Source of the DNA: Escherichia coli
GTDB lineage: Bacteria; Pseudomonadota; Gammaproteobacteria; Enterobacterales; Enterobacteriaceae
Length of the DNA stretch: 64,000 bases
Reading direction: 5' to 3' (one strand)
NCBI RefSeq assembly: GCF_003334815.1
Contig: NZ_QOWO01000007.1
Below, in pieces: positions 8,257-9,803 of the stretch; positions within the stretch are counted from its first letter, which is position 1; the number at the start of each line of letters is the position of its first letter. Made by a program: the position numbers and the translations under genes. A model generated the notes under the pieces. The model was given only the letters and a program-made list of their open reading frames with translations. It had not been told where the DNA came from and searched no databases.

Positions 8257-9192
8257 TTATTTCACTTCAACCACATTCAGCCGTAACTCATCCAACTGAT
8301 TTTCATCTTCTTCTGGCTGCCAGCACGCCGGTTGTAGTGGGATCTCTTCGCGATCAAACGCCAGATCACCCCCGTTAACCACTTCAGAACCGTGGGTGAT
8401 GCCTTTGAAATCGAACAGGTTGGTATCGCACAGATGCGACGGCACCACATTCTGCATCGCGCTGAACATCGTCTCGATACGCCCTGGATAACGTTTATCC
8501 CAGTCACGCAACATGTCAGCAATCACCTGACGTTGCAGGTTAGGCTGTGAACCGCACAGGTTGCACGGAATAATCGGGAACGCTTTTGCATCGGCAAATC
8601 GCTGAATATCTTTCTCGCGGCAGTAGGCCAGCGGACGAATAACGATATGTTTGCCATCATCGCTCATCAGTTTCGGAGGCATACCTTTCATCTTACCGCC
8701 GTAGAACATATTTAAGAACAACGTTTGCAGGATATCGTCACGATGGTGACCCAACGCGATCTTCGTCGCCCCCAGTTCCGTTGCGGTACGATAAAGGATA
8801 CCGCGACGAAGGCGAGAACACAGTGAGCAAGTGGTTTTGCCCTCTGGAATCTTCTCTTTCACGATACCGTAAGTATTCTCTTCAACAATCTTGTACTCAA
8901 CGCCCAGCTTTTCAAGATACTCGGGCAGAACGTGTTCCGGGAAGCCCGGTTGCTTTTGATCGAGGTTAACAGCCACCAGCGAAAAATTGATTGGCGCGCT
9001 TTGCTGCAAATTGCGCAGAATCTCCAGCATGGTATAGCTGTCTTTACCCCCGGAGAGGCAAACCATGATGCGATCGCCTTCTTCAATCATATTGAAGTCA
9101 GCAATGGCTTCGCCCACGTTACGACGCAGACGTTTTTGTAATTTGTTCAGGTTGTATTGTTCTTTCTTACTAATTTCTTGATTTTGCGACAT
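8257..9192 (-). CDS. ttcA: tRNA 2-thiocytidine(32) synthetase
   Basis: 311 aa; PP-loop SGGKDS and CxxC pairs; N-terminus [14 protein letters not shown]. Confidence 0.9.
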
Positions 9193-9341
9193 TTAAAAGC
9201 GACTCAATTCGTTATATGGCATCAGAAGAGTATGCGTCATGCCGGAACGCCCAGCATAAGAAATCTGATATAAAAAACTGTGGCGTGTATGGTACGGATT
9301 AGAGGGGAAAATGTCAGCACATTTGCGAAATGAATCAAAAA

Positions 9342-9361
9342 GCCCGCAGCAATGTGCGGGC
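9342..9361 (-). terminator. uspF intrinsic terminator
   Basis: On minus strand GCCCGCACATTGCTGCGGGC followed by TTTTTGATT, just downstream of uspF stop. Confidence 0.6.
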
Positions 9362-9368
9362 GTTAGTG

Positions 9369-9803
9369 TCAGCGCACAACCAGCACGGAGCACTCTGCGT
9401 GACGCACTACAGCTGCGGCGTTGGAACCGAGCAGATAAGTGGTGATATCCGGTCGATGGGAAGCAATGATGATCATATGAGCGGGGATCTTCTTCGCCAA
9501 TTCCAGAATGCGGTCTTTGGGCGAGCCTTCCTCAACATGGACATGCACTCTGTCGGTTGGCAGTTTAAATTTTTTAATGATCTCTTCCAGTTGCGATTTG
9601 GCTTCCGCTTTCAGGTCATCCATTGCCGGTAATTCTGCGGAATACGCTAAACCCAGAGAGGCATAGTAGGGCAGTGAAGGTATTACCGTCAGGAAATGAA
9701 CCTCTGCATCATCAATCTTTGCCTCTTCCTCAACGTGGCTAATCACGCGTTGAGTTAATTCTGAATCGGAAATATCGATAGGGACAAGAATCGTTCTGTT
9801 CAT
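9369..9803 (-). CDS. uspF: universal stress protein F
   Basis: Track ORF 9369..9875; start moved to internal ATG ([15 protein letters not shown]) with AGGAGG RBS for 144 aa. Confidence 0.85.

Follow-up and report, generated by a model that had tools for sequence, protein, structure and literature searches.

The ttcA-uspF junction of a natural, K-12-like Escherichia coli strain as an unoccupied attachment site for Rac-type prophages

Genes and signals at the ttcA-uspF junction

We start with the genes of the window, which is the whole stretch of E. coli DNA analysed here (64 kb of contig NZ_QOWO01000007.1, assembly GCF_003334815.1). Around ttcA the window reads zntB, fnrS, dbpA, ttcA, uspF, ompN, micC and ydbK, which is the K-12 order minus one block. 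All the window's open reading frames (ORFs) of at least 250 amino acids correspond to K-12 core genes in their K-12 order, from abgA to aldA. At the junction itself, the two genes and the DNA between them are as follows:

8257 to 9192, minus strand: ttcA, tRNA 2-thiocytidine(32) synthetase, a 311-aa ORF with the native (non-phage) N-terminus MSQNQEIS, its start codon at 9192-9190
9193 to 9368, no strand: native ttcA-uspF spacer, 176 bp, with 100% identity to the K-12 ttcC'-uspF spacer
9337 to 9361, minus strand: intrinsic-terminator-like hairpin (9342-9361) and T-run just 3' of uspF, with the stem GCCCGCA/TGCGGGC (7 pairs) followed by TTTTT
9369 to 9803, minus strand: uspF, universal stress protein F, a 144-aa ORF, counterpart of K-12 b1376

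Comparison with the NCBIfam equivalog models assigns both proteins to their families: TtcA scores 513.5 bits against NF007972 (cutoff 272), and UspF scores 302.2 bits against NF011581 (cutoff 166). The ATG of ttcA occupies 9192-9190 in the ORF list and the stop codon of uspF occupies 9369-9371, and the preliminary description of this DNA, which had placed the two genes directly next to each other with 176 bp between 9192 and 9369, is exact in its coordinates. The ORF list also holds a longer, upstream-extended version of the uspF ORF.

The spacer contains no ORF that matches a phage protein, and the search in and around it for att repeats or phage remnants returns only repeat pairs of 10-12 nt, which is the chance level. 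No Rfam RNA family is matched within the spacer; the matches of the window (fnrS, micC, mcaS, rydC) all lie elsewhere. All four are known small RNAs and occupy the places expected from K-12, with McaS at 2900-2995, FnrS at 6373-6490, MicC at 11302-11422 and RydC at 62771-62834. A scan for promoters gives a single sigma-70-like candidate for ttcA in the spacer, at 9317 to 9289 on the minus strand (9/12), for which we make no claim, as the total of the scan (2 sites, with 1.4 expected from shuffled sequence) does not exceed chance.

The next question is whether any part of Rac is present. A blastn search (E<=1e-5) finds no Rac DNA outside the flanks in the 64-kb window, and a tblastn search (E<=1e-3) gives a match for none of 25 translated Rac proteins over the same 64 kb. 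The absence of Rac is thus established for the 64-kb window, and the locus is free of integrase, phage genes and att-type repeats, as the preliminary description had claimed. A Rac-like phage could be integrated at a different site in this genome, so that the ttcA site is empty while the genome is not Rac-free, and such an arrangement has a precedent in Phi-CFT073-potB, a related phage in potB of strain CFT073 (PMC4632033). We consider this unlikely for the present genome in view of the blank tblastn result in the window, and the interpretation of 9100-9400 as an empty attB would not change if it were the case.

The attachment core in comparison with K-12

We turn to the occupied form of the locus. 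In the K-12 MG1655 record the cryptic prophage Rac extends from 1411899 to 1434958 (23,060 bp) between ttcA (b1344) and ttcC' (b4638), a 51-bp pseudogene that is followed by uspF. The same location between ttcA and ttcC' is given by Liu et al. 2015 (PMC4632033). The Rac genes in the record include intR, xisR, ralR, recT, recE, kilR, racR, trkG, stfR, pinR and ynaE, and the annotation places ynaM as well as ynaE within the block from ttcA to ttcC'. The annotation therefore bears out what the preliminary description says about K-12, namely that Rac lies between ttcA and uspF and is integrated at the 5' end of ttcA; the two genes are not neighbors in MG1655, where Rac intervenes.

When a 35-kb K-12 stretch containing this region is compared with the window by BLAST, there are two matches only. 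The left flank (K-12 stretch 1-6942) corresponds to window 2244-9185, and the right flank on the ttcC'-uspF side (29960-35001) corresponds to window 9143-14184. The two arms overlap at window 9143-9185 and leave nothing between them. Aligning the window with both K-12 junctions, as the preliminary description had proposed, resolves this overlap into an attachment core and the DNA beside it:

9143 to 9168, no strand: attB common core for Rac-type integrases, 26 bp exact, TTGTTCAGGTTGTATTGTTCTTTCTT, covering ttcA codons 9-17 (KKEQYNLNK)
9169 to 9192, minus strand: native first eight codons of ttcA, with 17/24 bases identical to the phage-borne look-alike and all identical to K-12 ttcC'
9171 to 9183, plus strand: match to the IHF consensus TAAnnnnTTGATW adjoining the core, TAATTTCTTGATT, read from the sequence as a predicted site

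The anatomy of the site can be read directly from a three-way alignment and a base-by-base comparison, in which the 26-bp core is identical in the window, in K-12 attL and in K-12 attR. K-12 holds two copies of the core, spaced 23,060 bp apart, and the window holds one, also when up to 3 mismatches are tolerated. Removal of Rac from the K-12 sequence in silico produces a junction that is identical to the window across the 600 bp tested. The window is thus the left and the right flank of K-12 joined through a single core, which upholds the earlier suggestion of an unoccupied Rac attachment site. Beyond the att region each flank shows a single difference from K-12, at 2712 in the left one (about 6.9 kb) and at 11604 in the right one (about 5 kb).

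From the side of the phage, the same 26-bp position is annotated as attP in the GenBank record of Rac-SA53 (KU052037). We also compared a reconstructed K-12 attP with a phage collection, in which no record spans both arms contiguously; the best matches come from prophages, in records whose sequence begins at the ttcA side or contains it (Rac-SA53, vB_EcoS-683R6), and this search gives no independent attP from a circular phage. Taking these comparisons together, we are highly confident that Rac-type lambdoid prophages have an intact and unoccupied attB at 9143-9168, placed within codons 9-17 of ttcA, and the site would probably still be competent for Rac-type integration.

In K-12, matches to the IHF consensus lie beside attL (in ttcA) and in ttcC', and cell-cycle-specific IHF binding is reported at the attL version of the motif and not at the ttcC' version (PMC8407004). 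The version of the motif in the window is that of ttcC'.

The TtcA N-terminus and the history of the site

The TtcA protein of the window is identical to K-12 TtcA except for four N-terminal residues. K-12 TtcA begins MQENQQITKKEQYN, with the start MQENQQIT, and the window protein starts with MSQNQEIS, which is also the translation of K-12 ttcC'; from K-12 TtcA to the window the substitutions are Q2S, E3Q, Q6E and T8S. At the DNA level, 9169-9192 differs from K-12 ttcA at attL by seven bases (9169, 9170, 9177 and 9186-9189). Because 9169-9192 is identical to K-12 ttcC', the first eight codons of K-12 ttcA and the DNA upstream of them are phage DNA, and the version in the window is the native one. 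The preliminary description had proposed that this N-terminus would be the native one, and the comparison with ttcC' and the published work (PMC4632033) both agree with that view.

In that work, experiments show that excision of Rac alters four N-terminal residues of TtcA, with the imperfect match between attL and attR as the cause; the resulting form is also that of E. coli and Shigella strains whose ttcA is free of prophage, and its authors regard it as the ancient one (PMC4632033). The functional difference between the two forms is likewise taken from the literature: they differ in fitness under carbenicillin (PMC4632033). In a 2023 NAR study, induced excision gave identical 23,060-bp deletions together with "three base changes" in the 5' end of ttcA (PMC11014345). 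These three base changes correspond to window positions 9169, 9170 and 9177, and the remaining four were probably absorbed by the way in which the deletion was called in that study.

How common is the empty site? We count a complete E. coli genome as carrying the contiguous junction when one place in it covers at least 80% of a 1.2-kb junction query, among the complete E. coli genomes with a match. The contiguous (empty) site is found in 2,489 of 5,411 genomes (about 46%), and the K-12 ttcA-intR junction is covered to at least 80% in 1,886 (about 35%). A third class of some 900 genomes (about one in six), a figure estimated from the spacing of the matches listed in both searches and not counted, retains only an integrase stub, with a deletion that runs through attR and the spacer to about window position 9297. 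The remnant that this class keeps between ttcA and uspF is about 2.3 kb long; besides the integrase stub, which measures 231 bp, it contains a fragment of DUF1627 and a metal ABC permease with a frameshift. Strain AR_0104 (NZ_CP020116.1, 748-3072) is an example, and its ttcA retains the phage-type N-terminus MQENQQIT. The ttcA of the third class is permanently fixed with this phage-derived N-terminus. The empty site, then, is the state of nearly half of the finished E. coli genomes.

These numbers also bear on whether the junction could be an assembly artefact, in which the prophage was lost by collapse across the repeated core or by excised cells dominating the reads. A hint of an error-prone assembly could be seen in ynbC (50469-52223), whose reading frame falls into three pieces through the loss of one base from a T7 run (at about 50498) and of two bases from an A4 run (at about 51585), and which is otherwise 100% identical to K-12. 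Neither deletion occurs in any of the 4,603 complete E. coli genomes that carry ynbC, and the gene is either a private pseudogene or the product of a homopolymer sequencing error. A repeat of 26 bp, however, falls far short of what could make a 23-kb element collapse, thousands of independently finished genomes have an identical junction, and all the other window genes of at least 250 aa are intact (in an ORF-length comparison with K-12, ynbC alone being aligned). An artefact of this kind is therefore extremely improbable.

The window could also be suspected to come from a laboratory K-12 cured of Rac. We reject this origin: the autotransporter-like ydbA (39576-45344) is uninterrupted in the window, and the first 25 kb of the window are matched at 100% identity by many natural isolates (cattle, pig, human and sheep), all of which have the empty site. 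An intact ydbA together with these identical natural isolates indicates that the window derives from a natural K-12-like strain and not from a cured laboratory K-12. In the window ydbA is a single ORF of 1922 aa, and the K-12 copy is a pseudogene into which IS2D and IS30C have inserted.

Whether the site has ever been occupied is a separate question, since a crossover within the exact core leaves no scar, and a vacated site carries the same sequence as a naive attB. It is conceivable that a recent ancestor harbored Rac and lost it by precise excision through IntR and XisR. The flanks are those of Rac-bearing K-12 apart from the single differences at 2712 and 11604, and this implies a very recent split of the two lineages; the K-12 Rac is described in the literature as an old, decayed resident, and Rac is still excision-proficient in K-12 (PMC4632033, PMC11014345). 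The K-12 lineage could equally have gained Rac once the two had separated, either as a phage or within a segment brought in by homologous recombination, and the many natural isolates identical to the window over 25 kb share the empty site. On balance we give precise excision a substantial chance, though somewhat below even. What the close match of the flanks to those of Rac-bearing K-12 does show is that the gain or loss of Rac is recent relative to the divergence of the lineages.

Integration, ttcA transcription and known systems

We next consider what integration does to ttcA, with the recombination steps taken from the literature. In lysogens such as K-12, the tyrosine integrase IntR recombines attP with the core, and the excisionase XisR serves the reverse reaction; YdaQ (XisR) is reported as the Rac excisionase (PMC4632033). 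The phage supplies a surrogate upstream region and the first eight codons, so that ttcA stays open, and the native ttcA start with its upstream DNA is displaced by about 23 kb, to become the ttcC' pseudogene beside uspF. The window shows no such integration, and its ttcA is read from the native ATG behind the native 176-bp upstream spacer, directly downstream of the uspF terminator. The spacer must hold the native 5' UTR and promoter of ttcA, and we infer from this arrangement that the strain would transcribe ttcA from a native promoter within the 176 bp.

In K-12 the gap between the ttcA ATG and the stop codon of intR is just 51 bp long (K-12 stretch 6950-7000), and a simple scan of this gap finds no promoter-like and no terminator-like site in it. 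A gap of this kind means that Rac integration probably rewires the transcription of ttcA too. It is then imaginable, and we offer it as a doubtful proposal, that in the roughly half of E. coli strains whose site is occupied, ttcA transcription may depend on signals under phage control (e.g., read-through from intR/xisR), and in strains with an empty site on the native spacer promoter. If true, prophage occupancy would lead to strain-level differences in the s2C32 modification of tRNA. The Rac and TtcA papers cited here cover the amino-acid change, and the promoter swap is absent from them.

For annotators, the junction means that ttcA is present in this strain as the ancestral allele, that the site is open to integration by Rac-like phages, and that the locus is without the Rac-borne functions recET, kilR, ralR/ralA, racR-ydaST and trkG. 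Occupancy of the site is near a coin toss across finished E. coli (about 46% empty, about 35% with a ttcA-intR junction, and remnants in the rest), which makes it a convenient marker of prophage turnover. Beyond annotation the junction has little significance, as its biology is already published: the configuration is real and ordinary, a frequent and known polymorphism that Liu et al. 2015 (PMC4632033) describe exactly.

The closest known system is the attB/TtcA' of K-12 delta-rac (Liu et al. 2015, Sci Rep 5:16074, PMC4632033), and a direct comparison finds the locus, the 26-bp core and the TtcA N-terminus all the same. The window differs from K-12 delta-rac in that it comes from a natural strain and not from an engineered or induced K-12, in its uninterrupted ydbA and in the 2 SNPs of its flanks. 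The ttcA-integrated prophages K-12 Rac, CP-933R and Sp10 of O157:H7, and Rac-SA53 all use the attachment core that is present in the window; unlike them, the window has no prophage, no integrase and no second att copy, and it is the target and not the element. A more distant likeness is to prophages of the P22 and P4 types, which integrate into the 3' ends of tRNA genes and carry a replacement gene end. In both systems the phage DNA next to attP duplicates the displaced end, so that the target stays functional, and an empty site displays the native end. The target of Rac, in contrast, is the 5' end of a protein-coding gene, where integration also exchanges the regulatory DNA upstream and alters four residues of the protein.
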